Assembly: GCF_000020025.1 (NCBI RefSeq)
Contig: NC_010628.1
Span: forward strand, 4,050,001-4,082,000
DNA: 32,000 nucleotides
Source: Nostoc punctiforme PCC 73102
Lineage (GTDB): Bacteria; Cyanobacteriota; Cyanobacteriia; Cyanobacteriales; Nostocaceae
Direction: 5' to 3'
A program made the position numbers and the translations under genes. Within the stretch, counting starts at the first letter, position 1, and each line of letters starts with the position of its first letter. This document shows, piece by piece, positions 791 through 19,395 of the stretch. The notes under the pieces were generated by a model. That model saw only the letters and a program-made list of their open reading frames with translations. It made no database searches and had not been told where the DNA came from.

Positions 791-1319
791 TTGAAATCCT
801 CGATAACAGCTTTAACAACGCAGAACTTTCACTGAGAAAGCGGAGCTTATACTTTTATTTGGCAAATTGAGCAATAATAAAAATAGCAGGTCACACTTCA
901 ATCTGAAAGTTCTTGTCAAAGGAACCTGATGAATAGATGAAGAAATTATCTCTGTATTTCTGCATCGAATTAGAAGGGATAATAAGCAAATACCACCTTA
1001 ATCCTGTAGCAAAATTCTTACATTTGATATTGACATTCTTTTCTCAAGGTTCCCTGTTTCTACTTGTACTTTGAAAATGCTAAAGTCTGCATCAATCTCT
1101 AGAATGAACTTTTCTATATCTGTGGTTGCAATAAAAATCAGTCTCTAGATATATCGACTTAATATAGTTGTCACAGCTTAATGACTTTGGGATTTATGTT
1201 CAGTTAGCTCGACTTTATCCAATCAAAGCAATTTCACAAGGATGCACTTTATAGGATATTTGTAAAGTATAAATTTATATAAATATTCCCTTTTTTAAGG
1301 GGAAAAATAAATCTTTTCT

Positions 1320-2420
1320 TTAAACTTGATAAGTCTGCCTTATTACCTCTTCTATTGAACTTACACGATTGAACATTTCTATTAATTCATGGGATCTAGT
1401 TTTTCGCTTCGCCAGCAGTACTTTTAAGGGCATTAAATAATGAACATCTGGGTCATTTCCCAAGGCAACTTCGGCTGCTTGCAGGACTTTTGTCGCATTC
1501 TCAAAAATATCCTTGTTGTCAAAACCTTCTTTTGCTGAAATTTGATGTAATACCTTACTGGGTACAGTTTCTCTACCCAGTAAGGTATTATCTAACACCA
1601 AACCTTTCAATAACGCTAGCAGAGCCGCATAGATAGAAAAATCATCACAACTATCACAAGCTTTAAATTCAATGCGTCCGACTTCAGCCGGAATGCGGGC
1701 TATTTTTGTTAGTGAGGGTATACTATTAATCAGTTGTTCTTCTTTCTGAACAAAGACTAGGGCTGCTGGTCTTTTTCCAGTTCTGATAAACGTTCGTACC
1801 GATAACCCATCCCATAAACCTCCTTTATAAAAAGGGGAACTATAACTAAAAGGAACGATATAGGGACTGTAATAAGTTAACTTTCTACCAATATCAATCA
1901 CATTTTCAGTAGACAAATCTGCCACCGAAATATTTAAATCTGGTCCATAAGACACCATGTGAATATTAGCAGTTTGTTCGTCAGGATAAGCCTCTAGCTG
2001 TTTTATTTCATAATCATTTAATGGAGGTTGAGGCTCAAAAGCCGGATTGTAGGGATTAAAACTGACTAAAACTGGTGATAAGTCAAAATTAGCAGCAACT
2101 TCACGTAGTAAGCGAAAACTTTCTGATAATTCCGTAATAGCGCCTTGAATATCAGAATGTATAGTTGTTCTAATTTCAATACCTTTAACATGACAGTCTA
2201 TCACTTCATCGGAATCTGCAAATCTTTCAAATCCCTCAATATACCATCTCTTCATCTTAATACCCGCATCACCTACACGCAGTTGAGGATAGTCGCTGGG
2301 ATATGTGGGGAGCTTTTCAATAATTTGATTAAAATCAGAAAATTTTGTGTGGGAAAAATCAGCAAATTTTCCTTCTTTGTTTAGGAAAGCGACTTCATGC
2401 TCAATACCAAAGAAAAACAT
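1320..2420 (-). CDS. Glutamate-cysteine ligase family 2 (GCS2/YbdK-like carboxylate-amine ligase) protein
   Basis: 366-aa ORF. The N-terminal 'FGIEHEVAF' and the overall size recall GCS2/YbdK-type ligases. It is not the plant-type GshA. The assignment rests on motif memory only. Confidence 0.55.
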   Translation of the reverse strand: MFFFGIEHEVAFLNKEGKFADFSHTKFSDFNQIIEKLPTYPSDYPQLRVGDAGIKMKRWYIEGFERFADSDEVIDCHVKGIEIRTTIHSDIQGAITELSESFRLLREVAANFDLSPVLVSFNPYNPAFEPQPPLNDYEIKQLEAYPDEQTANIHMVSYGPDLNISVADLSTENVIDIGRKLTYYSPYIVPFSYSSPFYKGGLWDGLSVRTFIRTGKRPAALVFVQKEEQLINSIPSLTKIARIPAEVGRIEFKACDSCDDFSIYAALLALLKGLVLDNTLLGRETVPSKVLHQISAKEGFDNKDIFENATKVLQAAEVALGNDPDVHYLMPLKVLLAKRKTRSHELIEMFNRVSSIEEVIRQTYQV

Positions 2421-2688
2421 TATATATACCTTTATTGCTTATAGTTAACCTAATCTAACTAATAGATATTTCCAAAAATTAAATATGCTTTCTCTAGAAC
2501 CCTTGTAGAGACGTAGCACGAATATTTGAGATACTCCAATCAAATTTACTTTAACTATAAAAATTCTCAATAATAGGATAAATGAATTTTACCCTAAGAT
2601 CGGCTTTTGCGATTTGATAAACCTCTCTGATTTATTTTTCTGTACTGCCCAGACTATCTTCCTAGTCGCCGATTAGGGTAGTTTAGTA

Positions 2689-3396
2689 ATGACTGAGGAA
2701 AGCTTGAGACGTGAGTTTATGACAAGTACCGTTCAATCCCCCTACAGCAGCGAACAGATTGCCGCTTGGTTGCGTGGACTGCTCACCATTGCTTGGGCAG
2801 ATGGTAATTTTGATGCCCAAGAACAGGAATTAATAGCCAGCATCACCAAAGATGAATTAGCTCCTAAGATTAAATGCGACTCACTAGAGGTAATTACGCC
2901 AGAGGAATTAGCCGCAGTGTTGGGTAAAGGTACACCAGCTGCGGAAAATTTCTTAAGGACAGCGATAATGGTAGCGATCGCAGATGGTACTTATTCTCCC
3001 AGTGAAGATGAGGTTCTACATCAATTCTGCCAAGCCTTAGAACAGCCAGAGAATTTACTAGAAGCCCTTCGCCACACCCTAGAAAACCCACAGCAAGTTA
3101 CCCCTGTTATTTCCAGCCCTGGACTTACAAAGCGTCAAATTGATGCACTACACCCTCTGCGTGACTGGCTGGATGGGCTAGATATTCAAGACCCAAGAGT
3201 AGCCCGCTTTTTGTGTAAAATGATCCCCTCCCAGTGTCCCTTTGAGCGGGATGTCACCTTATTTGGACGCAAGATTGTCCACATCCCGCCGATGTGTAAA
3301 ATCAATCCCTTGTATGAGCAACTGGTGGGCTTACGTTTCCGCGCCCTCTCTTATCTAGCAGATAAATGCGGTGAAGATGTTTCACCATATATTTAG
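2689..3396 (+). CDS. TerB-like N-terminal domain fused to a 'Mo-dependent nitrogenase C-terminal' (Mo-nitro_C)-like domain
   Basis: 235-aa ORF, with an alternative start at Met11 (2719). 'AAWLRGLLTIAWADGNFDAQEQELI' and 'RTAIMVAIADGTYSPSEDEVL' are TerB/DjlA_N-like repeats. The C-terminal 'CPFERDVTLFGRKIVHIPPMCKINPLYEQL' matches my memory of the cyanobacterial Mo-nitro_C domain. Confidence 0.6.
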   Translation: MTEESLRREFMTSTVQSPYSSEQIAAWLRGLLTIAWADGNFDAQEQELIASITKDELAPKIKCDSLEVITPEELAAVLGKGTPAAENFLRTAIMVAIADGTYSPSEDEVLHQFCQALEQPENLLEALRHTLENPQQVTPVISSPGLTKRQIDALHPLRDWLDGLDIQDPRVARFLCKMIPSQCPFERDVTLFGRKIVHIPPMCKINPLYEQLVGLRFRALSYLADKCGEDVSPYI

Positions 3397-3470
3397 TTAG
3401 AGTTAGGAATGAGGAGTAAGGAGTTATAATTTGTAACTCCTCACTCTTCACTTCTCACTATTATTTAAGT

Positions 3471-4499
3471 ATGCAATTTATCGATCAAGCAAAAATTGAA
3501 GTTGAAGCTGGTAAGGGCGGTGATGGTATTGTCGCCTTCCGGCGAGAGAAATACGTGCCGACTGGTGGCCCCTCTGGTGGTAATGGGGGACGAGGTGGTT
3601 CGGTATTTTTCGTTGCCGACGAAAACCTACAAACCTTGCTGGACTTCAGATATAATCATCGCTTTCAGGCAGAAAAAGGAACTCGTGGTGGGCCAAATAA
3701 CTGCACAGGGGCAGGAGGAAAGGATTTAATTATCGAAGTTCCCTGCGGTACAACCATTTATGATGCTGAAACTGGCGAACTGCTGGGAGATTTAACTGAG
3801 CCTCAGCAAACTTTACTGATAGCCCAAGGTGGTAAAGGTGGACTAGGAAATCAGCATTTCTTGAGTAACCGTAACCGCGCCCCAGAATACGCTCTCCCAG
3901 GATTACCGGGGGAAATAAAGCAGCTGCGTCTGGAGTTGAAACTTTTAGCAGAAGTGGGGATTATTGGCTTACCAAATGCTGGAAAATCCACTCTAATTTC
4001 ATCTTTATCAGCAGCACGTCCAAAAATTGCTGACTATCCCTTTACTACCCTGATCCCAAATTTGGGTGTAGTGCGGAAACCAACTGGCGATGGTACTGTT
4101 TTCGCCGACATTCCCGGACTAATTGCGGGAGCATCTCACGGGGCTGGGTTGGGGCATGATTTCTTGCGTCATATTGAGCGCACGCGAGTGCTACTTCACT
4201 TGATTGATGCCACTAGTGATGATGTAATTAGGGATTACAACACAATTAAAGAAGAATTACAAGCTTATGGACAGGGTTTAGCAGAACGTCCACAAATTTT
4301 GGCGCTGAATAAAATTGATGCTGTAGATCGGGAAACTGTCGATTTGGAGGCTTTAGCTACCCAACTTAATCATCTCTCCTACGCCCCGGTTTTTATAATT
4401 TCAGCAGTTACTCGCACCGGCTTAGAGCCGATGTTACAAGAAATCTGGGGAATTCTTGACCAAATGAAGGTTCCTGAAGAAGTGGAGGCATTGAGATAA
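3471..4499 (+). CDS. obg: GTPase Obg/CgtA
   Basis: 342 aa. It has the Gly-rich Obg fold '[45 protein letters not shown]'. GTPase motifs are G1 [10 protein letters not shown]3 DIPG and G4 NKID. Confidence 0.97.
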
Positions 4500-8704: not shown

Positions 8705-9310
8705 ATGATGAGCGATCGCGACTATACATTAATCATTGATAAAAGCGGTAGTATGTCCACACCCGACCAAGTGGGCGGTAGAAGTAGATGGGAGATTGCC
8801 CAAGAGTCTACACTGGCTTTGGCAAGAAAGGCCGAACAATTTGACCCCGATGGCATCACCGTTTACTTGTTTTCCGGTAGATTTAAACGCTACGATGATG
8901 TCACCTCAGCCAAAGTCGCACAGATATTTCTCGAAAATGACCCTGCTGGGACGACAAACTTAGCAGGTGTGCTTCAAGACGCAATCAATAATTACTTTCA
9001 ACGTAAAGCAGCCGGTAAAAGCAAGCCAAACGGAGAGACAATTTTAGTCATCACCGATGGTGAACCAGACGATCGCAAAGCGGTTTTTGAAGTCATCATT
9101 CATGCTACTCGCCAGATGGAGCGTGATGAAGAATTAGGAATTTCGATCATTCAAGTAGGTTCAGATGCCCAAGCGACTAAGTTCCTTAAAGCTTTGGATG
9201 ACCAGTTGCAAAGCGTCGGCGCTAAATTTGATATTTGCGATACTGTTACTTTAGACGACTTAGAAGAAATGAGTCTTGTAGATGTATTGACTAACGCAAT
9301 AACTGACTGA
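8705..9310 (+). CDS. Single-domain von Willebrand factor A (vWA) protein with complete MIDAS
   Basis: The ORF track starts at 8678. I prefer ATG 8705 (MMSDRDYTLIIDKSGSM) because the paralog starts MLENRDYTLIIDKSGSM and 'aaaggaaaatt' precedes it. MIDAS residues are DKSGS, 'GTTNLAG' (Thr) and 'ITDGEPDD' (Asp). No signal peptide or TM segment. Confidence 0.85.
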   Translation: MMSDRDYTLIIDKSGSMSTPDQVGGRSRWEIAQESTLALARKAEQFDPDGITVYLFSGRFKRYDDVTSAKVAQIFLENDPAGTTNLAGVLQDAINNYFQRKAAGKSKPNGETILVITDGEPDDRKAVFEVIIHATRQMERDEELGISIIQVGSDAQATKFLKALDDQLQSVGAKFDICDTVTLDDLEEMSLVDVLTNAITD

Positions 9311-9351
9311 TTAGTTTAAAGTTTTTTATTAAATAATTAGGAAAATTATAA

Positions 9352-9956
9352 ATGCTAGAAAATCGTGATTATACCTTAATTATTGACAAAAGCGGCAGCA
9401 TGGCAACCCAAGATCAAAAGGGTGGCAGAAGTAGATGGTTTGCAGCGCAGGAATCTACTTTAGCTTTAGCTAGTAAGTGTGAGCAATTTGACCCAGATGG
9501 TATCACTATTTACTTATTCTCTGGTAAATTCAAGCGATACGAAAACGTGACATCCAGTCTAGTAGGGCAAATTTTCCGAGAAAATGATCCCTCTGGTACA
9601 ACTGACTTGGCAGGTGTGTTAAACACGCAACTGACGATTACTTACAACGCAAAGCAGCCGGTCAAACAAAGCCAAATGGTGAAACAATTTTAGTGGTTAC
9701 TGATGGTGAACCGGACGATCGCAAAGCAGTTATGAAGGTAATTATTGAAGCTTCTCGCCGCATCGATCGAGATGAAGAATTAGCCATTTCCTTCATTCAA
9801 GTTGGCACAGATCCACAAGCTACTCGCTTTCTAAAAGTCTTAGATGATGAACTCCAAAGTGCTGGTGCTAAGTTTGATATCTGCGACACCATTACTATGG
9901 AAGATATGGAAGATATGAGTCTATCAGAAGTGTTGCTCAATGCCATTAATGACTAG
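9352..9956 (+). pseudogene. Tandem vWA paralog interrupted by a 1-nt deletion (two ORFs, 9352-9693 and 9693-9956)
   Basis: In gene 1, '...gca ggt gtg ctt caa gac gca...' aligns to gene 2 '...gca ggt gtg tta -aa cac gca...' at ~9619-9624. After the shift, the other frame reads KHATDDYLQRKAAGQTKPNGETILVVTDGEPDD, colinear with gene 1 QDAINNYFQRKAAGKSKPNGETILVITDGEPDD. Stop TAG 9691-9693 overlaps GTG 9693-9695. Confidence 0.7.
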
Positions 9957-9982
9957 ATATATCATTTATAGGAATTGCAAAA

Positions 9983-10378
9983 ATGGATTCCATTGATAAG
10001 CTGTTAGCCGAACTCAAAACTGAATATAAAGAAGTAAAACCACAACAGCAACAGTCAAAATCAGCCACAGCCAAATCCTTTATTCCACCATTGCCAAAGT
10101 CGGCATCTTTTATGGATCCCATTTTGGCAGAGGTTAAGGCTAATTTTGCAGAAGAGGATGCTGCTATTGAGTTAAAAAAACAACAAGAACTAGAACAAGA
10201 GCGAATTCGCCAAGAACAACTCAAAGCCAAACAATTAGAGGGTTTGAAAATACAGGCAAAAGAATGGTTAGCTAAAGTAGATCCACTTTCGTCGGAAGGA
10301 CTTTGGTTTGAAAGGTTTGCTGAAAGTTACCCCTCAAAATTAGAGGCAGCGGTTGAATATTTAAGAAGCAATGAATAA
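9983..10378 (+). CDS. Hypothetical Q/E/K-rich coiled-coil protein, third gene of the vWA operon
   Basis: 131-aa ORF starting 26 nt after the vWA paralog, on the same strand. The central 'EEDAAIELKKQQELEQERIRQEQLKAKQLEGLKIQAKEW' is coiled-coil-like. The conserved-looking C-terminus is 'DPLSSEGLWFERFAESYPSKLEAAVEYL'. No family recognised. Confidence 0.6.
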   Translation: MDSIDKLLAELKTEYKEVKPQQQQSKSATAKSFIPPLPKSASFMDPILAEVKANFAEEDAAIELKKQQELEQERIRQEQLKAKQLEGLKIQAKEWLAKVDPLSSEGLWFERFAESYPSKLEAAVEYLRSNE

Positions 10379-10397
10379 ATGTTTTCAAACAAGAATG

Positions 10398-10423
10398 TAG
10401 AGACGCAATATTTTACGTCTCTA
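10398..10423 (+). terminator. Hairpin terminator candidate after the vWA operon ('tagagacg...cgtctcta' repeat family)
   Basis: An 8-bp stem, tagagacg / cgtctcta, has a 10-nt loop and is followed by 'ttaattttta'. It lies 20 nt after the stop at 10378. The same 'gtagagacg' family occurs at ~2505 and 19597-19623. Confidence 0.5.
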
Positions 10424-10518
10424 TTAATTTTTAGACATGTCTAAATAAACAATTCAAGATTCAAAAATAATCTCCTATCTCAAATTTAACATGAGCAATT
10501 ATTATTTATTACCCATGC

Positions 10519-10866
10519 TCAATATTGATGGTGATTTGTTCGATTTGAGTGTTGAACAGCCCATTCATGCATAGCATAGAGAATTGGTTGCAAAGTTTCT
10601 CCTAAATGCGTTAGCGAATATTCTACCTTTGGTGGAATTTGGGGATAAACTTCTCGATGGATAATGCCGTCTTGCTCCATTTCTCTAAGTTGCTGAGTCA
10701 ACATCTTTTGCGTAACTCCGGGTAAAGCTCGTTGTAACTCTCCAAACCTTTTTACGCCAGTCATTAATTCTCTAATAATCAAAACTTTCCAGCGTCCGCC
10801 AATTACCTTTAGGGTAGTTTCTACTTCACAAGTCAGCCTGAGATTGTTTTCTGCTTCAGCTTTCAT
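10519..10866 (-). CDS. HxlR-family winged-helix transcriptional regulator
   Basis: 115 aa. '[71 protein letters not shown]' is the classic HxlR signature. Confidence 0.9.
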
Positions 10867-10975
10867 AGTCAGTTTTTAAGAAGTACCTTACTTAGGTTTG
10901 CTGGGTAGTACCGCTAGTTAAAAGTATGGGTACATCTACAACACTCCACAAGATTTAACTGCTCTCTTTGATGGA

Positions 10976-11800
10976 CTAAATTTTTTTGGCAATGTGAAAA
11001 GCGGATATATATGAGAGATGAAGACTGCCTCCGAAGTCATATTCTATACTTTGCCTTAATCCTTTAAATAATGCTTTTTTGGTATCTGGAGGTAACTTTA
11101 GGTATGGCGAGTAAGTGTTTAAAAGCATTAAATATTCATCAACATTATATGTCACTTCAGATACAACTTGCCCGGATATTAAATCTTTAAATTGGCCCGA
11201 ATCGATGGACATATTTCCTAATGCTCTCAATATCTCTTCTTGGGTTTCTATGTCTTCATATCGATCAAGCGATGGAGCATATAATTGATAGATTTTGGAT
11301 AAGCGTTGATATACTTCAGATGAAGGTTGAAGTTCTTTGTTCCATAGTAAAATCAGGTTGCCAGTTTGTTGTAAGGCATTTGCTGCTTTTTGATATCCTA
11401 CTTCTGGTGATATCCAATGAAAAGAACTCGCTGCTAAGACGGCATCAAATTTAGAAGGCTGTAAAGTCCACTCTTCAAAAGATGTATTCTCAATCTCTAC
11501 ATTGGGATACATTCGACAATTCTGTTGAGCTAACCGAAAAAAATCTGGGTTGGGTTCTAAGCAAATCATTGAGCATCCCAATTGAGCGAATGCTATCGTT
11601 GCAGTTGCAGGGCCACATCCTACTTCTAGAATTTTTGAGTTAGTGGAGAGTTGAGCAATTTCCGCAACTTGGTGAGTTAAATCCTCTGGATAGCGGGGCC
11701 GTGCCTTGTTATAAGCCTCTGCTGCCGGAGAATACCAATTTTTTCGCTGTTCAAGGTCTTTACTGGAGTAACTGATTATTGCTTGTTTTAGGTCTTCCAT
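10976..11800 (-). CDS. Class I SAM-dependent methyltransferase
   Basis: 274 aa. Motif I is 'ILEVGCGPATATIAF', followed by the post-I acidic 'CLEPN' and 'FDAVLAASSFHW'. Confidence 0.85.
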   Translation of the reverse strand: MEDLKQAIISYSSKDLEQRKNWYSPAAEAYNKARPRYPEDLTHQVAEIAQLSTNSKILEVGCGPATATIAFAQLGCSMICLEPNPDFFRLAQQNCRMYPNVEIENTSFEEWTLQPSKFDAVLAASSFHWISPEVGYQKAANALQQTGNLILLWNKELQPSSEVYQRLSKIYQLYAPSLDRYEDIETQEEILRALGNMSIDSGQFKDLISGQVVSEVTYNVDEYLMLLNTYSPYLKLPPDTKKALFKGLRQSIEYDFGGSLHLSYISAFHIAKKI

Positions 11801-11928
11801 AATCTACTTGGAATAGCGCTTCAGAGAAAGCAATGTGGAATTAATTTGAAGAAGGCAAAAGGCAAGAGGAAAGAAGGCTTTTTAAGTTGTACGGAGTTTT
11901 TTCACGCAATCAAATATGAGTCCTATAG

Positions 11929-12675
11929 TTACGTAGCTATCAACTCAGAATCGATTTCCGACGGCGCACTATCTTGAACTAGCGATCGCGTTTCACCATT
12001 ACGCTGGAGGATACCGCCAACCATTGCTAACAAGGCGTTTACCTTGCGCGTTCGCCACATATCTACAAGTTTTTCCACTTTGCTAGCAGACATCTGTCGC
12101 ATCATGGCTTCGTAAAGATAAGCAGCATGTCCAGTTTCATCTTGGGCAATACTTAGCATTCCTAACTTCAAGTTACGATCGGTTGGCTCGTTATCAGGTA
12201 ATACTTTCGCCATTCGCGCAAAGTCTTTACTAGCATCTAACTCAAGAATGTATGTGCTAGCCATAAACACATCCCAGTCAATGACAGCAGGTTTAAGTTG
12301 TTCTTGCGTGTAGCCTTCAAAGAATGCAGCAAAAAAGGGACTACGCTGCTGTTGTGATTTGTTTGTGGTTGTAGTTTGGGGTTGACGCTTAAAATCTATA
12401 ACTTGTTTATTCATCTGCTGTAAGGCGTGGGCAAAGACTTTACCATGCCTAGTCTCATCTGATGCGTGTTTTGCTAATTTTTCGGCTAGCCATGTATCGC
12501 CTTCGGCTGCGGCGCGATCGCTCAATGCAGATAAAAACGGCACAGAACCAGATTCAGCAAAATAAAACCCCGCAAGGATGTTGGGACGGGTTTTAGAATC
12601 ACGAATTTGAGCAGCAGAATAATAGGCAAAAGCACCTGAACCAGCTAAATGCAGAATGTGAGTTAAGAAGTTCAT
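11929..12675 (-). CDS. Ferritin-like diiron-carboxylate protein, function unknown
   Basis: 248 aa. Two ExxH motifs ('SDETRHG', 'QDETGHA') are each preceded by a helix carrying Glu ('FAESGS', 'ILELDAS'). This gives the E/ExxH/E/ExxH four-helix-bundle pattern. Confidence 0.7.
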   Translation of the reverse strand: MNFLTHILHLAGSGAFAYYSAAQIRDSKTRPNILAGFYFAESGSVPFLSALSDRAAAEGDTWLAEKLAKHASDETRHGKVFAHALQQMNKQVIDFKRQPQTTTTNKSQQQRSPFFAAFFEGYTQEQLKPAVIDWDVFMASTYILELDASKDFARMAKVLPDNEPTDRNLKLGMLSIAQDETGHAAYLYEAMMRQMSASKVEKLVDMWRTRKVNALLAMVGGILQRNGETRSLVQDSAPSEIDSELIAT

Positions 12676-13655: not shown

Positions 13656-14543
13656 TCACTCCTCTTTCCAAGTTTGCAGTTGAAAATAAATTAATACCAG
13701 CGTCACTGCTAGTAACACCGTTGCTGCTGCTGCTGCATAACCAAAATCAAACTGACCAAAAGCCTCTTGATAAATGTAGTAAACCAGCAGATTAGTCGAA
13801 TTCAGCGGCCCGCCGCCAGTCATGACAAAAACTTGCTCAAAACTCCGCAATGTAAAAATCGCGGTAGTAATGACTGCAAATATCACAGTAGGGCGCAATC
13901 CAGGTAGAGTAATATACCAAAATTGTTGCCAAGCATTTGCTCCATCCAAATCTGCTGCTTCATAACGGCTCGGAGGAATTGCTTGCAACCCGGCTAAAAA
14001 AACTACCATATTGAAACCGAGTTGTTTCCAAATACTCATTAAAATAATTACTGGCATTGCCCAAAATGTATCTCCTAGCCAGGGGATGGCTGGAATGCCA
14101 AAAAAATCTAAAAGTCCGTTAACTGGCCCTGATGTTTGAAAGAGCCAGCGAAATCCCAAACCGGCTGCCACAAGTGAAATAATCGAAGGTAAAAAGTATG
14201 CACTCCGCATAATGCCCCGCAAAGGAATAGAGCGGTTTAATAGCACTGCCAATCCCAAGGAAATAACTAAACTGGGAATAATGGTGGCAACAGTAAAATA
14301 AAAGGTGTTACCTATAACTTGCCAAAAGTCAGGGTTGAGTAGCAAGCGCCAATAGTTTTTTAAGCCTATCCAATAAGTACCTTTTAAGGTGAAACTACCA
14401 GCAGTAAAGCTGAGGTAAAACAAATAGGCGATCGGCCAAATGATAAAAACGCCTAGTAAACTTAGTGCTGGTGTGAGAAAAGTCCAGGCAGCTACTGTAT
14501 CATTATCCAACCACGACTTAGTAGTATATATTTTTTTTGGCAT
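13656..14543 (-). CDS. Carbohydrate ABC transporter permease (MalF/UgpA-like), without adjacent partner genes
   Basis: 295 aa with about six hydrophobic helices. The EAA loop is 'EAADLDGANAWQQFWYITLPGLRP'. No second permease, binding protein or ATPase is nearby. Confidence 0.9.
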   Translation of the reverse strand: MPKKIYTTKSWLDNDTVAAWTFLTPALSLLGVFIIWPIAYLFYLSFTAGSFTLKGTYWIGLKNYWRLLLNPDFWQVIGNTFYFTVATIIPSLVISLGLAVLLNRSIPLRGIMRSAYFLPSIISLVAAGLGFRWLFQTSGPVNGLLDFFGIPAIPWLGDTFWAMPVIILMSIWKQLGFNMVVFLAGLQAIPPSRYEAADLDGANAWQQFWYITLPGLRPTVIFAVITTAIFTLRSFEQVFVMTGGGPLNSTNLLVYYIYQEAFGQFDFGYAAAAATVLLAVTLVLIYFQLQTWKEE

Positions 14544-14624
14544 CTATAATTTTTCCTCTTAGCTGTTTATGATCCTCCGCCCTGATTCTACCCTTAGCTT
14601 GGTTTCTCCTCGTATTAGCGATGT
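14521..14624. repeat. Left copy of a ~104-bp direct repeat (permease start plus relic purN 5' end)
   Basis: Manual alignment of the core 14537-14624 against 18711-18797 gives about 8 differences in ~88 aligned nt. Weaker similarity extends ~17 nt further left. The copy contains the real permease ATG (14541-14543, minus strand). Confidence 0.8.
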
Positions 14625-14625
14625 C
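14569..14625 (+). pseudogene. Relic duplicate of the purN 5' end (19 codons)
   Basis: ATG 14569 reads MILRPDSTLSLVSPRISDV, against the purN N-terminus MTLRPDSTLSLISPSISDV (16/19 identical). It then runs into repeat sequence and stops at ~14743. Confidence 0.7.
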
Positions 14626-14646
14626 TACGACGGGCTACGCCTACGC
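14618..14646. repeat. Left arm of a perfect 29-bp inverted repeat
   Basis: 'gcgatgtctacgacgggctacgcctacgc'. Its exact reverse complement 'gcgtaggcgtagcccgtcgtagacatcgc' is at 18326-18354. Related 'ggctacgcc' motifs occur at ~4509 and ~25373. Confidence 0.9.
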
Positions 14647-14690
14647 TTGGGTAAGCTCTTGGTTCATAATTATCTCTACTTAGAGTTTTT

Positions 14691-14855
14691 AGAGGATGTT
14701 TTAAAAGTCCTCTTGTCGCTAACAAAACGTTTCAGATCCCCCTAAATCCCCCTTAAAAAGGGGGACTTTGATTCCGGTTCCCCCCTTTTTAAGGGGGGCT
14801 AGGGGGGATCAATAAGTGCCTAAAATCACAGTAAACTACTTTTAAAACATCCTCT
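14691..14855. mobile_element. MITE-like element (~165 bp) with perfect 18-bp terminal inverted repeats
   Basis: The left TIR 'agaggatgttttaaaagt' (14691-14708) is the exact inverse of the right TIR 'acttttaaaacatcctct' (14838-14855). The interior is itself palindromic: 'gatccccctaaatcccccttaaaaaggggg...cccccctttttaaggggggctaggggggatc'. It has no coding capacity. Flanks are 'tacttagag' and 'tacttaaag'. Confidence 0.65.
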
Positions 14856-14981
14856 TACTTAAAGCTAATCCTAATTTGAGCGACTCTGTTTTTTGAAAAA
14901 AATTAGATCGTTCCGCTTCGCTACACTCTAAAAGGGTAAAAGAAAGAAGGGTAGAGGGCTAAAGAACTAAAGTATAAAGGG

Positions 14982-17900
14982 CTACTGAAGAATCCTCCCG
15001 GCAGCGCACACAATACGAAAACCAATATCGTTGAAGCGGTAGTCGCGCGAGTCGTTGCCGCGATACGCGGAACGGCAGTACTCAGGACTGTCGTCCCAGG
15101 AACCGCCCCGCAGCACTTGAAATTCATTATCATTATCTATCCATGCACTTCCATCAGTAGGCGCTCCTTTATAGCTGTCATGCCAAGTATCTTGGCACCA
15201 CTCCCAGACATTCCCGTGCATATCACATAATCCAAAGGCGTTGGGTGGAAAACTTCCTACTTCTGTTGTTTGTTGACGATATTTTCCCTTTGGTGCAGAA
15301 GCGTAAGTAGAATTTCCATCGTAGTTGGCTAACTCAGTTGTAATCGTCTCACCAAAGTGAAATGGTGTATTTGTGCCAGCACGACAGGCATATTCCCACT
15401 CTGCTTCACTTGGTAGGCGATATTCGCGCCCAGTCTTTTGACTCAGCTTTTTGCAAAATTCTACTGCATCATTCCAGGACACTGTTTCTACAGGACGTTT
15501 TGCTCCCTTGAAGTTGGAGGGATTGCTACCCATTATTTGCTGGTACTGTTCCTGAGTCACTTCAAACTTGCTTATAAAGAAAGCAGGTACATTTACAGCG
15601 TGTTGTGGGTTATGACCAGTTTCCCCGGGTGGTGAACCCATCTTAAATGAACCAGCAAGAATCTCAACCATCTCCAGAGTTATGCCATTACCTAAGTCCT
15701 CCTTAAAGAACTTAGCTTGTTTGGTAGGATCTCGTTTAATTACCTGTCCCTTTTCATCTACTGTTACCGTTTCAAACTTAAAGGTTTCAAGCTTAACGGG
15801 AATATATTTGGATGATTGGCCCTTAAAAATTTCACTACCTACTACTGCTGTCACCAAACCTACACGTCCCAAACCAGCCCACTTCAAAAACTTTTGTCGG
15901 GTAATTCGCTCTTGAGTCGGTTGAGTGGGTTGAGCAGGTCTTGGCTGCTGAATCGGAGATTTAATCAATTCTTGGCTTGCTACAACTCTGGTTTCAATTG
16001 CAGTGATGTCCGTTTGTTTAAGTCCTAGAGTCCGTTGAAGTTGCCTTAACCTCTGTCGAACATCATCACTATCAAGGGAATTCCCTGCTTCAATTGTTTT
16101 AGTTAATTCCTGCTCATACTGCTGTAATTTTTGGCCGTATTCTGCTTCCTCTCGCTGCCTTTGTTTTTCTGCCTCCTGCTGCTTTAGTCGTACAGCTTCT
16201 TGTTGTTGCCGTTGTTTCTCTGCCTCCTCCTGTCTGATTCTCTCTTGCTGTTTCCGGGATTCTGATTCTGAAGATGATTGAATAATAATTGCTTCGAGTT
16301 GAGCTATTTCCGCATCATTTAGTTCTAAAACTTGCTGAAATCGTCGCAACTCTTCACGAGTAGCGTCACTAAGAGGATATTCAAACTGCATCGACTCTCT
16401 AAACACCTCTTCATACTGCTGAAGCTTTTGCCGATGTTCCTCGATCGCAGCAACAATTGGATTTTCTATTGCAGTCACATTCTCAGCAGTCAGATTCAAC
16501 GCTTGATGACGTTGGGTTAGTTGAGAGCGTTTGAAACTACTGAGCGGATATTCTTGTTGAACAGCTTCTCTAAACTCTTGCTCATACTGCCGCAAGTTTG
16601 CTTGATACGTTTCAATCTCCGCATTAATCCGCCTCTCGATCGCCCCCACATCCCCTTCACTCAACCCCAACGTCTGCCAAGTTTCCTGCAACTGTTTCCG
16701 CGTCACCTCATCTGGATAATGCTGGCGCTGCGTCGCCTTCACAAACGCCTGCTCGTACTGCTGGAGTTTTTGATGATAGCTTTCAATCTGCGTGGTGATT
16801 TGTGCTTCAATTGGGGCAACATCTACATCCGTCAGTCCCAAACGCTGCTGTTGTTGGCGTAAATCATTCCGCGTTGCCTCACTAAGGGGATATTCCTGCT
16901 GCGTGGCAGTAAAAAACAGCCGTTGGTAGTCCTGGAGTTTCTGGCGATATGCCTCTACCTCAGCCGTAATCTGAGATTCTATCGCCGCAATATCCCCATT
17001 TGCAAGTTCTAATTGCTGCTGGGTTTGCCGTAAGCGATCGCGGCTTACTGTACTCAGGGGAAACTCCTGTCGCAGTGCTGTTGTAAACGCTTGCTGATAT
17101 GCTTGGAGGTTTTGCTGATGTGTCTTAAACCGTGCAGTTACTTGTGCTTCAATCGGCATCGTGTCTTCATTTCGCAGCCCCAAAATTTGCTGGAGATTTT
17201 GCAAATCGTGGCGATCGCTATCTGTAATTGTCTCATCTCGCTCCAGTAGTTCAGTAAACACCTGCTGATACTGCTGGAGTTTTTCCCGGAAGTCATTGCG
17301 ATACGGTTCCAACACCTCATCTTCAACCGCCTTCGCCTCAGTTGTCTCCAATCCCAAGCGAGTCCTCTGATAATCTAGTGTGCGACGACCAACAAGAGAA
17401 ATTTCGCCTCGATGAATAAATCGCGCAACTTTTTTACGGTATCGCTGTCTGGGATCGCCCGGAGCCACCTTTGCCAGTCGAATTTTAAAACCTTCTCGAA
17501 TTGCATAGATTTCCGGCTTCATTGCAGGTTGAACTTCTCGCACCTTCTGACTTGCGTATTCATGGAGTTCATCGATAGAGATAAACTCATCTTGATCGCG
17601 ATCGGCTTCTCCCGACTTGATACCTTCAATCAAAAAACGAGTGTAAATCGATAAATCTTGTCCCTCTTGCTCAAAGGAATATTGAGTCGAGGTAGAAGAA
17701 GTCAATACTGCTCGTCCTTCACCGCCTAACTGCTCTCGGATGTCAATCGTGCCGTCATCTTTGGCAGACATACCCTCAGCAAACGCGCCACTAAAGCAGC
17801 TATCTAGGATTACTACCTGCCGACGGGAGCGGCTTTCGCTCATGCGATCGTGAATGAAATTGGCAGACACCGACGTTGAGCGAATCAATTCGCCCTGCTG

Positions 17901-18203
17901 CGTTTTACTGGTGTTACGAGTCGCCAGATAGAGCCTACCGCGATCGTCTTTGATGCCGTGTCCCGAAAAATACAGCAACAGCAAATCATCTTTGTGCCGA
18001 CCGGAGAACAGCGTTTCGATCGCAATTTCTACAATTTGTCGTTCAGGATTTTTTAGCAGGGTAATATCTGACGCAGCAAACCCGCCCATCTCGCTATGCA
18101 GCAGTACCTCACAAACTGCTTCCACATCTCTAACTGCACTGGGCAAAGGGTTCAGCCCTGGCTCATACTCACTGACCCCAATCAGCAACGCTACCTTCGC
18201 CAT
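14982..18203 (-). CDS. Orthocaspase (peptidase C14) / 8 x 57-aa repeats / putative TM / FGE-sulfatase (SUMF1-like) domain protein
   Basis: 1073 aa. Caspase domain, aa 1-~245: 'VALLIGVSEY', 'LLLLYFSGH82G', 'VVILDSC136FSG'. Repeats span aa ~252-748. The hydrophobic segment is 'WAGLGRVGLVTAVVGSEIF' (aa ~775-793). FGE-sulfatase motifs, aa ~842-1068: 'RLPSEAEWEYACRAG', 'GLCDMHGNVWEWCQD', 'LRGGSW', 'IGFRIVCA'. Confidence 0.92.
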   Translation of the reverse strand: MAKVALLIGVSEYEPGLNPLPSAVRDVEAVCEVLLHSEMGGFAASDITLLKNPERQIVEIAIETLFSGRHKDDLLLLYFSGHGIKDDRGRLYLATRNTSKTQQGELIRSTSVSANFIHDRMSESRSRRQVVILDSCFSGAFAEGMSAKDDGTIDIREQLGGEGRAVLTSSTSTQYSFEQEGQDLSIYTRFLIEGIKSGEADRDQDEFISIDELHEYASQKVREVQPAMKPEIYAIREGFKIRLAKVAPGDPRQRYRKKVARFIHRGEISLVGRRTLDYQRTRLGLETTEAKAVEDEVLEPYRNDFREKLQQYQQVFTELLERDETITDSDRHDLQNLQQILGLRNEDTMPIEAQVTARFKTHQQNLQAYQQAFTTALRQEFPLSTVSRDRLRQTQQQLELANGDIAAIESQITAEVEAYRQKLQDYQRLFFTATQQEYPLSEATRNDLRQQQQRLGLTDVDVAPIEAQITTQIESYHQKLQQYEQAFVKATQRQHYPDEVTRKQLQETWQTLGLSEGDVGAIERRINAEIETYQANLRQYEQEFREAVQQEYPLSSFKRSQLTQRHQALNLTAENVTAIENPIVAAIEEHRQKLQQYEEVFRESMQFEYPLSDATREELRRFQQVLELNDAEIAQLEAIIIQSSSESESRKQQERIRQEEAEKQRQQQEAVRLKQQEAEKQRQREEAEYGQKLQQYEQELTKTIEAGNSLDSDDVRQRLRQLQRTLGLKQTDITAIETRVVASQELIKSPIQQPRPAQPTQPTQERITRQKFLKWAGLGRVGLVTAVVGSEIFKGQSSKYIPVKLETFKFETVTVDEKGQVIKRDPTKQAKFFKEDLGNGITLEMVEILAGSFKMGSPPGETGHNPQHAVNVPAFFISKFEVTQEQYQQIMGSNPSNFKGAKRPVETVSWNDAVEFCKKLSQKTGREYRLPSEAEWEYACRAGTNTPFHFGETITTELANYDGNSTYASAPKGKYRQQTTEVGSFPPNAFGLCDMHGNVWEWCQDTWHDSYKGAPTDGSAWIDNDNEFQVLRGGSWDDSPEYCRSAYRGNDSRDYRFNDIGFRIVCAAGRILQ
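15960..17450 (-). repeat. Intragenic array of eight 171-nt (57-aa) coding repeats
   Basis: The anchor 'LQxY(Q/E)QxF' recurs at aa 309, 366, 423, 480, 537 and 594, an exact 57-aa spacing, and again at 692 after a charged insert. The unit pattern is LQxYxQxF-x7-(E/F)YPLS-x3-R-x2-L-x3-QQ-x-LGL-x3-D(V/I)-x2-IE-x-(Q/R)I-x6-(Y/H)-x2-(K/N). Copies are diverged at the DNA level. Confidence 0.85.
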
Positions 18204-18325
18204 TTAATTTACCTATGCTGCGATCAAATCCTATACGGCTTTAATCTCTGTATTGTTTCATTTATACCAAGTTTTAGAATATTATCTCTATCAACCGGAC
18301 TAGATTATAAGCAAAATTTAATCAA

Positions 18326-18354
18326 GCGTAGGCGTAGCCCGTCGTAGACATCGC
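18326..18354. repeat. Right arm of the perfect 29-bp inverted repeat
   Basis: It is the exact reverse complement of 14618-14646. It lies 123 nt upstream of the caspase start codon (18203, minus strand). Confidence 0.9.
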
Positions 18355-18419
18355 AACATAGAAAGAGACACTGCTAAATTACAGCAGTTTTCATATATTT
18401 GAATCACACCTGTCGTAAG

Positions 18420-18437
18420 GGCGCAAGGTCTTGCGCC
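18420..18437. repeat. Hairpin of the 'ctgtcgtaRGGG' dispersed repeat family
   Basis: 'ggcgcaa ggtc ttgcgcc' (7-bp stem) is preceded by 'cacctgtcgtaagg'. Compare 'catctgtcgtagggg' at 4585-4599. Confidence 0.55.
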
Positions 18438-18515
18438 TCTATCGCGTGGTCTATTTACTACGATTTAGTAGAGCATTTCATTAATCCATAGCAAATTAAA
18501 TTTGGCAATACCCTG

Positions 18516-18662
18516 CAATGTTAATGCATCGGCTGACAATGCCAATACATAGGGTAACAATACCAATGTATCGGGTAACAATGCCAATACATCGGTTGAC
18601 AATGCTAATGCATCGGGTAACAATGCCAATGCATCGGGTAACAATATTAATGCGTCCTTTTG
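18516..18662. repeat. 21-bp tandem repeat, about 7 units (consensus caatgccaatgcatcgggtaa)
   Basis: Units start at 18516, 18537, 18558, 18579, 18600, 18621 and 18642 (the last degenerate). Each unit has 1-4 substitutions. The array lies in the divergent region between the caspase gene and purN. Confidence 0.9.
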
Positions 18663-18693
18663 CATTAAACAAGCTACGCTTTTACACAAAAGT

Positions 18694-18717
18694 GTACGTA
18701 TTATATCTTTTTGGCAT
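18694..18717 (-). pseudogene. Relic duplicate of the ABC-permease 5' end (8 codons)
   Basis: The reverse complement 'atgccaaaaagatataatacgtac' reads MPKRYNTY, against the real permease 'atgccaaaaaaaatatatactac' reading MPKKIYTT. The frame closes shortly after. Confidence 0.6.
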
Positions 18718-18797
18718 CTATAATTTTCCCTTTTAGCTGTTATGACCCTCCGCCCTGATTCTACCCTGAGCTTGATTTCTCCCAGTATTAGCGATGT
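18694..18797. repeat. Right copy of the ~104-bp direct repeat (relic permease start plus real purN 5' end)
   Basis: See 14521-14624. This copy contains the purN ATG (18742) and a relic 'cat' (18715-18717) at the same 25-nt spacing seen in the left copy. Confidence 0.8.
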
Positions 18798-19395
18798 TCG
18801 CCAACAAGTCGCCCCTTTAAAGCTGGGAATTATGGCTTCTGGGAATGGCAGCAATTTTGATGTAGTTGCTCAAGCTATCCAAGATGGACAACTAAATGCC
18901 CAAATTCAAGTTTTAATTTACAATAATCCCTCGGCGAAAGCAGCCGTCAGAGCAGCTAATAGAGGTGTAGAAGCTGTTTTATTGAATCACCGCAACTATA
19001 AAATCCGAGAAGAGTTGGATGAGAAAATTGTGCAGACATTGCAGCACTACGATGTGGAATGGGTGATTTTGGCGGGTTGGATGCGATTGTTAACGTCAGT
19101 TTTCATTGATGCCTTTCCTGACAAAATTATTAATATCCATCCTAGTTTGTTACCTAGTTTCAAGGGAATCCATGCTGTAGAACAAGCCTTGGCATCTGGG
19201 GTAAAAATTACTGGTTGTACGGCGCATATCGCTTGTTTAGAAATGGACAGTGGCCCAATATTGATGCAAGCCGCAGTACCAGTATTGCCAGATGATACAG
19301 CAGAAACACTCCACGCCAGGATTCAAATTCAAGAACATCGAATTTTGCCGCTAGCGATCGCTCTGGCAGCTTCTTCGTCAAAGTCATTTTTTTAA
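18742..19395 (+). CDS. purN: Phosphoribosylglycinamide formyltransferase
   Basis: 217 aa with 'KLGIMASGNGSNF', 'ILAGWMRLL', 'IINIHPSLLPSFKG' and 'GCTAHIACLEMDSGPIL'. Start 18742 is the only in-frame ATG upstream of the first beta-strand, giving a ~25-aa N-terminal extension. Confidence 0.92.
   Translation: MTLRPDSTLSLISPSISDVRQQVAPLKLGIMASGNGSNFDVVAQAIQDGQLNAQIQVLIYNNPSAKAAVRAANRGVEAVLLNHRNYKIREELDEKIVQTLQHYDVEWVILAGWMRLLTSVFIDAFPDKIINIHPSLLPSFKGIHAVEQALASGVKITGCTAHIACLEMDSGPILMQAAVPVLPDDTAETLHARIQIQEHRILPLAIALAASSSKSFF

Follow-up and report, generated by a model that had tools for sequence, protein, structure and literature searches.

A caspase–FGE-sulfatase protein of Nostoc punctiforme with a predicted retroelement variable region, encoded at a polymorphic insertion site

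The 32,000-nucleotide stretch of the Nostoc punctiforme PCC 73102 genome analysed here (the window; NC_010628.1, positions 4,050,001 to 4,082,000) carries, between divergently transcribed permease and purN genes, a gene for a 1073-aa protein in which an orthocaspase domain and a domain of the formylglycine-generating enzyme (FGE)-sulfatase type are joined by a rigid helical stalk. The protein was found to be identical to ACC81713.1, annotated in the databases as ‘protein of unknown function DUF323’. The four-part architecture given in a preliminary description of the sequence (caspase, repeats, hydrophobic stretch, FGE-sulfatase) was supported by Pfam and by an AlphaFold2 (AF2) model, and in the Pfam searches that the description had named as a check both domains scored far above their cut-offs. 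The end of the FGE-sulfatase domain corresponds to the variable region of a diversity-generating retroelement (DGR). The gene and its parts, all on the minus strand, are as follows.

14982..18203, minus: open reading frame (ORF) of 1073 aa with ATG start, 100% identical to ACC81713.1 / UniRef100_B2IZU2
17508..18197, minus: Peptidase C14 (orthocaspase) domain, residues 3-232, EACC1-associated type (Pfam, NCBIfam, Foldseek)
16284..17390, minus: alpha-helical stalk, residues 272-640, six full 57-aa repeats and a half repeat (repeat profile, AF2)
15969..16283, minus: Gln/Glu/Lys-rich charged coiled-coil insert (residues 641-690) and displaced partial repeat (about 688-745)
15825..15902, minus: twin-arginine translocation (Tat)-like motif and weak hydrophobic segment, TRQKFLKWAGLGRVGLVTAVVGSEIF, residues 768-793 (position of the transmembrane helix of paralogues)
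15009..15791, minus: beta-extension and FGE-sulfatase / C-type-lectin-fold (FGS) domain, residues about 805-1065 (Pfam, PDB profiles)
15024..15095, minus: DGR variable region, 24 hypervariable codons 1037-1060, DDSPEYCRSAYRGNDSRDYRFNDI (comparison with orthologues and template)

The N-terminal domain matched Peptidase_C14 (PF00656) with 66.5 bits against a cut-off of 21.4 (E 3.6e-18) and the NCBIfam model NF047832, ‘caspase, EACC1-associated type’, with 173 bits against a cut-off of 140, while PADLOC returned its generic caspase model only (5e-16). The two residues previously proposed as catalytic were located as described, His82 (CAC, 17958-17960) in YFSGHG, which contains the canonical SGHG motif, and Cys136 (TGC, 17796-17798) in LDSCFSG, which contains the canonical DSC.SG motif; both were invariant in an alignment of 28 homologues. 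The AF2 model of the full chain, another of the proposed checks, was built on this alignment and supported a caspase-hemoglobinase fold at the N-terminus, with confidence scores (pLDDT) of 70-90 except over residues 135-176. Foldseek aligned this domain, with probability 1.0, to the MALT1 paracaspase, the yeast metacaspase Yca1 and animal caspases; a phmmer search of the caspase domain against PDB sequences gave no match and a profile search gave only a weak match to metacaspase-4. By its motifs the protein is catalytically equipped, a predicted His/Cys orthocaspase. The same N-terminal 60% of the protein is joined in relatives to FGE, BON, WD40, TPR, PDZ, GUN4, PBP or cyclophilin domains, and C-terminal domains are also exchanged at the same Nostoc locus (L001, L030, L055, L073).

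The C-terminal domain matched the FGE-sulfatase family in Pfam at residues 844-1065 (E 4.4e-60) and, in PDB profile searches, PvdO (5hha, 2.5e-56) and the DGR target TvpA (2y3c, 1.9e-35). The domain retains a single member of the catalytic cysteine pair of FGE, Cys1043, the equivalent of human Cys341; the position of human Cys336 aligns with the DGR-variable Asp1038. Scores for the NCBIfam models of PvdO, EgtB and OvoA were far below their cut-offs, and the FGE-type domain is judged from its sequence to be non-catalytic. The preliminary description had taken it as a ligand sensor, an assignment that proved incomplete rather than wrong: the generic sensor ends in a DGR variable region, which had been missed.

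Comparison of sixteen Nostoc copies disclosed an invariant scaffold, LRGGSW-xxx-P-xx-CRSA-x-R-...-GFRVVC, the positions between its fixed residues being hypervariable, also between near-identical proteins such as P0007 and P0009. Variable codons were of the form NNC or NNT, with the third base fixed. In a protein-guided codon alignment of 15 Nostoc copies, the 26 codons after GGSW had mean entropies of 1.05, 0.79 and 0.25 bits at codon positions 1, 2 and 3, as against 0.27, 0.21 and 0.39 bits for the 211 upstream codons. Such an inverted pattern is what marks mutagenic retrohoming directed at adenines, the process carried out by a DGR.

A template was inferred by setting A at the variable positions, and the resulting pattern was scanned over a metagenome collection. 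A first, over-specified pattern gave zero matches, whereas a second, looser one gave eight metagenome loci with Asn-rich templates (GSWNNNPNNCRSAYRNNN...NNNIGFRV, for example GSWNNNPNNCRSAYRNNNNRRDNHNNNIGFRIV). In the two loci checked (L084 and L085) the template comes immediately after bAvd and reverse-transcriptase genes and lies beside FGE-domain targets. Of the 29 A positions of the L085 template, 14 are mismatched in the window gene, as are 3 of the 70 other positions; for the sixteen Nostoc copies the mismatches with the template were 263/488 at A and 82/1132 at non-A positions (odds ratio 15, p about 4e-92). The DNA homologous to the template extends over about 14985-15113, and the 3’-end of the gene together with the first bases after the stop codon (GCGCTGCCGGGAGGATTCTTCAGTAGCCCTT) is identical to two variable regions located beside a DGR reverse transcriptase of N. 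flagelliforme.

As no DGR genes are nearby, the protein would be a ‘remote’ target, and it has been listed as such: Table S3 of Vallota-Eastman et al. 2020 (PMC7517822) has ACC81713.1, in its ‘CLec & Peptidase’ group, among the remote variable proteins attributed to the N. punctiforme DGR. This DGR, Npun_F4885-F4892, was reported in 2025 (mBio, PMC12691664) to be expressed and to produce adenine-directed variants in two adjacent targets, which are the targets that study covers; remote ones fall outside it. The template and variable-region sequences of the N. punctiforme DGR were absent from the supplements of PMC7517822, PMC5758913 and PMC3521204, and in a DGR reverse-transcriptase search the N. 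punctiforme enzyme was not among the best 120 matches. Current targeting of the window gene in trans by this DGR is unproven.

Two of the DGR loci deserve description. In L085, the DGR-adjacent target (1211-4420, 1069 aa) consists of a GntR helix-turn-helix domain, a response-regulator receiver, a caspase and an FGE domain, and is another wiring of a caspase to the same variable lectin module. The N. flagelliforme locus (L094, strain CCNUN1, 7811066-7824136) includes an AAA ATPase, a VMAP-FGE target, an FGE-only target, bAvd and the reverse transcriptase, with two variable regions and no recognisable template within 6 kb of the reverse transcriptase.

The caspase subfamily carries its own expectation of a partner. 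‘System 4’ of Kaur et al. 2020 (eLife, PMC7159879) consists of a small membrane-active EACC1 protein encoded 5’ and a caspase encoded 3’, with about 50 alternative domains behind the caspase, often following a transmembrane helix. In Ktedonobacter, EACC1 is cut by the KrAvs12 caspase to release a fragment that makes pores in membranes (Evans et al. 2025, bioRxiv, PMC12642450). A 5’ EACC1 gene was found beside two more distant relatives of the window gene. In the Allocoleopsis locus L089 a gene for a 125-aa protein ends 9 bp before the homologous caspase gene; this EACC1-like family has more than 1000 members, one of which passes the Pfam EACC1 model (25 bits against 23.6). In the metagenome locus L091 an EACC1 gene is followed by the full-length caspase-stalk-FGE homologue P0042 (61% identical) and then by bAvd, a DGR gene; the record ends about 145 bp past bAvd, and up to that point no reverse transcriptase or template was seen. 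The cyanobacterial EACC1-like proteins of 125 aa are mostly unannotated: the Pfam EACC1 model misses most of them and no NCBIfam model matches them. The Allocoleopsis protein (P0121, L089 4615-4992) has Asp48 in the context ILD/PNPP, near the position of Asp49, the putative cleavage site modelled for Ktedonobacter EACC1.

No plausible ORF occurs within 18204-18741, upstream of the caspase gene. The earlier statement that the gene has no same-strand partner was therefore correct in that no EACC1-like ORF precedes it and in that the ABC permease is a housekeeping gene, but not literally, since this permease lies 438 bp downstream on the same strand. Likewise, the proposal of a self-contained sensor-effector became doubtful, because the caspase is of the EACC1-associated type and relatives carry EACC1 and bAvd genes, neither of which is near this copy. 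This copy is an orphan of a multi-part system. The accompanying statement that no member has a demonstrated trigger or substrate is outdated for the EACC1 type, given KrAvs12, but holds for the FGE-sensor subtype in the literature searched.

The stalk was previously described as eight in-phase 57-aa repeats. The period of 57 is real, but the array comprises six full units (272-612) and a half unit (613-640); a further partial unit, at about 688-745, for which the repeat profile gave about 716-745, is some 17 residues out of phase and separated from the others by the coiled-coil insert. In the AF2 model a short helix (about 13 aa) and then a longer one (about 35 aa) make up each repeat, with pLDDT 85-93 over the stalk, and a long helix spans residues 630-705; a single-sequence AF2 model of the repeats (pLDDT 48) was too poor for use. 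The same six and a half repeats were present at the same positions in all 120 family members inspected, which indicates a stalk of fixed length. A variable-number array had been considered for the repeats and was rejected on this constancy. No Pfam family covers the repeats, and the 50 Foldseek matches listed for PDB, all with E <= 0.001, included none to them.

The hydrophobic stretch of the preliminary description, WAGLGRVGLVTAVVGSEIF (residues 775-793), is present and is the most hydrophobic of the protein, but it is weak as a transmembrane helix: the Kyte-Doolittle mean over 19 residues reaches 1.23, where about 1.6 is the customary threshold, and the summed value on the Hessa scale is +6.8. 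The ‘membrane-spanning’ design derives its support from paralogues ending in PBP, TPR, WD40, cyclophilin, BON or pilin-like domains, which have strong helices at the same position (Kyte-Doolittle means 1.85-2.46, preceded by basic residues), whereas the feature is weak in this protein; in one case, a relative ending in the cytoplasmic GUN4 domain, there is no helix at that position. For this copy a membrane topology is plausible by homology. Together with the residues upstream (TRQKFLKWAGLG...), the segment resembles a twin-arginine signal, the motif being T-R-Q-K-F-L-K and internal, at residue 768; it does not match the consensus S/T-R-R-x-F-L-K, which is N-terminal. A true R-R pair, also internal, occurs in more distant caspase-FGE homologues (MSRRQALIL in P0042 and P0044, IKRRQLLKWGGFG in P0056), and in the Nostoc clade the R-R of the module is changed to R-Q-K. 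The segment looks like a degenerate internal twin-arginine signal. An unrelated vWA-FGE DGR target in L084 (5728-8724) has INRRQFLKW followed by the same beta-extension and FGE domain, so that ‘RRxFLKW, Gly-rich core, beta-extension and FGE’ behaves as a module fused behind different N-terminal domains. The internal Tat-like motif may direct Tat-dependent export of the folded lectin domain. No mention of such an internal module was found in Kaur et al. 2020 (PMC7159879).

The gene was found to be part of an insertion, the elements of which are listed below.

14534..14624, no strand: 91-bp direct repeat, left copy, with the true start of the permease gene and a corrupted duplicate of the 5’ end of purN
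18708..18797, no strand: 91-bp direct repeat, right copy, with the first permease codons in duplicate and the true start of purN
14618..14654, no strand: 37-nt inverted repeat, left arm (...CTACGACGGGCTACGCCTACGC...), resembling a short dispersed repeat
18318..18354, no strand: 37-nt inverted repeat, right arm, about 115 bp upstream of the caspase start
14855..18370, minus: cassette, approximate extent, from comparison of L035, L050, L077 and L092 with L001, L002 and L008

A repeat-bounded insertion had been foreseen, and the 91-bp direct repeat, about 92% identical between its copies, does duplicate the junction between the permease and purN starts; in the left copy an extra T breaks the purN frame. 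Just inside it, the 37-nt repeat (core ACGACGGGCTACGCCTACGC) forms an inverted pair around the gene. It also occurs in L001, L008, L012, L019, L030, L035 and other loci, and several genomes have a copy some 140-160 bp before the caspase start, among them L035, in which the gene is downstream of the permease. No transposase or integrase was found with the insertion, and promoter and terminator scans gave nothing above chance. The neighbouring genes are of housekeeping type: a PAS histidine kinase, a methyltransferase, a rubrerythrin-like protein, SNase, the ABC permease, purN, an aldehyde dehydrogenase and a nitrilase-type hydrolase.

Eighty Nostoc loci (L001-L080) were fetched with the permease as query, and 64 of them hold both flanking genes. 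The junction is uninterrupted in 32 (15-26 bp, mostly 24), contains inserts of 3.4-6.1 kb in 19 and shorter inserts in the remaining 13. The duplicated junction persists in seven of these short inserts, and remnants of the interior of the insertion in five, of which four have fragments of the caspase gene; the remnants comprise the 3’ end of the gene in L012, its 5’ end in L023 and L044, and repeat DNA in L079. In the close relative L004 (Nostoc sp. UCD121, 2253-2784) both 91-bp repeats, both arms of the inverted repeat and a 21-bp tandem repeat are found without the sequence corresponding to 14692-18317; either this sequence was cleanly deleted or the locus represents a scaffold from before the insertion. 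Four Nostoc genomes differ in that the cassette lies on the other side of the permease, downstream, at the position occupied here by SNase, and the purN/permease junction is uninterrupted (L035, L050 and L077, about 8960-12450; L092, 6001-9123). The copy of N. linckia is flanked by PemK/ParD toxin-antitoxin genes. A start could be recognised in 19 copies, of which eight or nine represent intact genes of the caspase-FGE type and four are intact with other ends, including BON. The accessory status previously assigned to the gene was thus confirmed among relatives, about half of the 64 loci being empty and several containing decayed copies: the gene is accessory, locally mobile and often lost.

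Three further details of the insertion were recorded. A 21-bp tandem repeat of 6.2 copies (consensus CAATGCCAATGCATCGGGTAA) occupies 18516-18645, upstream of the caspase gene and inside the insertion, and is also found in L001, L002, L004 and L008. On the 3’ side of the gene, at 14691-14855, is an element resembling a miniature inverted-repeat transposable element, with perfect 18-nt inverted ends (14691-14708 and 14838-14855) enclosing a 76-bp palindrome with G/C runs (14735-14810); its right end is the 3’ limit of the cassette common to the other loci. At the purN 5’ end (18742-18831) the ORF of annotated length begins 24 bp from the permease start, but the typical PurN sequence (IMASGNGSNF) is reached only some 30 codons further on, and promoter and 5’ untranslated region, rather than coding sequence, may be what the 91 bp duplicate.

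The domain architecture and the DGR parts of the overall reading are near-certain. As to function, it seems fairly likely that the protein links a hypervariable sensor of ligands to a caspase effector and has a role in conflict or defence, as a one-polypeptide member of the EACC1-type family (‘System 4’). In such a scheme the 24 codons of the FGS tip would be rewritten at template adenines by the chromosomal reverse transcriptase encoded elsewhere, that of the published DGR Npun_F4885-F4892, and the variable lectin tip would bind a changing non-self ligand, for example a surface component of a phage or a competitor. Sensing would probably take place outside the cytoplasmic membrane, if the anchor is functional. 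Binding would cluster the protein through its stalk, the proximity would activate the caspase, and the activated caspase would cleave a target, so that the filament cell stops growing or dies. For complete relatives this target would be the pore-forming propeptide EACC1. As there is no EACC1 beside the N. punctiforme gene, the effector here cannot be a neighbouring EACC1, which would leave as the target either an EACC1 whose gene lies elsewhere or some different substrate.

Several observations weigh against this scheme. With regard to the retroelement, the tests of adenine bias used heterologous templates and not that of N. punctiforme, the 32-kb window and the surroundings of the orthologues contain neither a reverse transcriptase nor Avd nor a template (a template repeat was likewise lacking in the window and the 80 orthologous loci), no stable hairpin is predicted after the variable region (z = +1.65), and PMC7517822 classed a protein as a remote variable one on the sole criterion that its putative variable region had a nucleotide identity of at least 50%. 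Across 22 contigs, this exact protein is the sole member of its 90% cluster, so that no fixed variable-region variants are seen in cultured lineages, these contigs being consensus sequences only. With regard to the anchor, the segment is below threshold, has an Arg in its middle at the position of a Gly in the orthologues and has R-Q-K in place of R-R; AF2 gives WAGLGRVGLVTAVVGSEIF no helix (pLDDT about 30), and PMC7517822 omits ACC81713.1 from the paralogues predicted to be non-cytoplasmic. As for the effector, tblastn with cyanobacterial EACC1 found no homologue in the window or the 80 Nostoc loci, so that the known substrate is missing locally, and the literature searched gives no trigger, substrate or phenotype for any caspase-FGS protein. 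Finally, six of the 19 Nostoc copies are truncated, which is compatible with an often useless gene.

The best of the competing explanations is that the gene is a decaying relic, the non-functional orphan of a system of EACC1, caspase-FGS and DGR that persists through recent insertion only, having lost its toxin partner, local retroelement, twin-arginine motif and part of its anchor. The absence here of EACC1 and DGR genes present beside relatives, RQK for RR with an Arg inside the hydrophobic core, the frequent truncations and remnants at other Nostoc loci, the empty half of the loci and the uniform variable region of the 22 contigs all fit this view. It is nevertheless considered unlikely. 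The 3.2-kb ORF is intact with an invariant dyad, and the N-terminal 240 residues of intact copies are 85-98% identical between species, mostly 92-98%, a value comparable to that of the flanking permease and not what a dead gene would suggest. Full-length caspase-FGE copies without EACC1 are retained by eight or nine further Nostoc species, which indicates that the EACC1-less form is maintained and is not a one-off; and the variable regions of orthologues differ by adenine-directed variants, which implies that diversification went on after the local DGR genes were lost.

The protein could instead be a regulatory or housekeeping protease, in which the variable lectin tunes recognition of an endogenous ligand or of the envelope and the caspase processes proteins in stress, differentiation or ageing without killing. 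This corresponds to the ‘regulatory pathway tuning’ idea of Vallota-Eastman et al. 2020 (PMC7517822), and the literature proposes non-death roles both for orthocaspases and for DGR-diversified signalling proteins; moreover, the neighbours are housekeeping genes with no defence island, and PADLOC matched its generic model only. The gene is, on the other hand, dispensable and often decayed, a pore-forming toxin is the partner of its caspase subfamily, the N. linckia copy is flanked by toxin-antitoxin genes, and a hypervariable binding tip suits a changing non-self ligand better than a fixed endogenous one. A regulatory role appears improbable.

Of similarly low probability is a more specific form of the sensor-effector reading, according to which the Nostoc clade would represent an EACC1-independent trans-membrane ‘death receptor’, with an internal Tat-like signal-anchor exporting the folded lectin domain to the periplasm, a tip rewritten in trans by the chromosomal DGR and a stalk of fixed length that relays the binding of an extracellular ligand to a cytoplasmic caspase; if true, a multicellular bacterium would possess a receptor-protease that is a single chain and can be diversified somatically. 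A catalytic FGE/SUMF1 enzyme, suggested by the strong Pfam match, the PvdO/FGE matches in PDB and names in the sources such as ‘formylglycine-generating enzyme required for sulfatase activity’ and ‘SUMF1/EgtB/PvdO family nonheme iron enzyme’, was rejected and is effectively excluded, since a single catalytic Cys is kept and the Cys336 equivalent is lost to the variable Asp1038, the PvdO, EgtB and OvoA models score far too low, and the best structural relative other than PvdO is TvpA, a DGR-diversified binding protein.

The preferred reading, of a diversified sensor joined to a caspase, bears on the open question of what DGR-diversified lectin domains sense and what the attached caspase cuts. 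N. punctiforme is genetically tractable and its DGR mutates two local targets in culture, which makes the protein a compact one-protein test case. The lack of a nearby EACC1 and the existence of natural strains with and without the gene could help to separate EACC1-dependent from EACC1-independent outputs.

The gene is real, dispensable and of a published kind, and it is not new as a discovery: publications already cover the protein and the class of its architecture, list it as a DGR target, and describe the caspase subfamily and its mechanism. The preliminary description rightly called caspase plus FGE-sulfatase a recognised class of cyanobacterial orthocaspases, which accounted for 39 of 473 in a 2021 survey (PMC8283722), and DGR-diversified lectin domains have been proposed as antigen sensors of conflict systems (Doré et al. 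2024). What is added here is small, namely the comparative proof of adenine-directed variation in Nostoc orthologues, the EACC1-less Nostoc clade, the fixed 57-aa stalk, the internal Tat-like module and the polymorphic insertion site.

Orthocaspases cleave after Arg or Lys. The putative EACC1 cleavage site in the modelling of PMC12642450 is at an Asp. MaOC1 of Microcystis and the type I metacaspases Yca1 and TbMCA2 share with the protein the SGHG and DSC.SG dyad motifs and the fold, but have neither the 57-aa repeat stalk nor the lectin domain. The EACC1-caspase systems are alike in the NF047832-type caspase and in the constant N-terminus with variable C-terminal domains, often after a transmembrane helix; they differ in that no EACC1 accompanies the gene in the window or in the orthologous Nostoc loci, and the description of Kaur et al. 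concerns mainly actinobacteria. KrAvs12 senses phage proteins by a cytoplasmic STAND ATPase, in contrast to the DGR-diversified lectin domain found here. The CLec/Peptidase_C14 variable proteins of PMC7517822 include this same protein, with its 3’ variable region and the scaffold GGSW...CRSA.R...GFRVV remote from the reverse transcriptase; there the assignment was made by an identity threshold, and the repeats, the EACC1 type, the Tat-like segment, the locus polymorphism and the comparison of adenine variation were not part of the account, in which the protein is predicted to be cytoplasmic. TvpA of Treponema denticola (2y3c) and Mtd of the Bordetella phage BPP-1 have the same FGE-sulfatase/CLec fold, with variable residues in the C-terminal GGSW...C...GFR; these are binding proteins of the surface-lipoprotein or tail-fibre type without a fused effector, whereas the Nostoc protein carries its variable tip on a long stalk connected to a protease.

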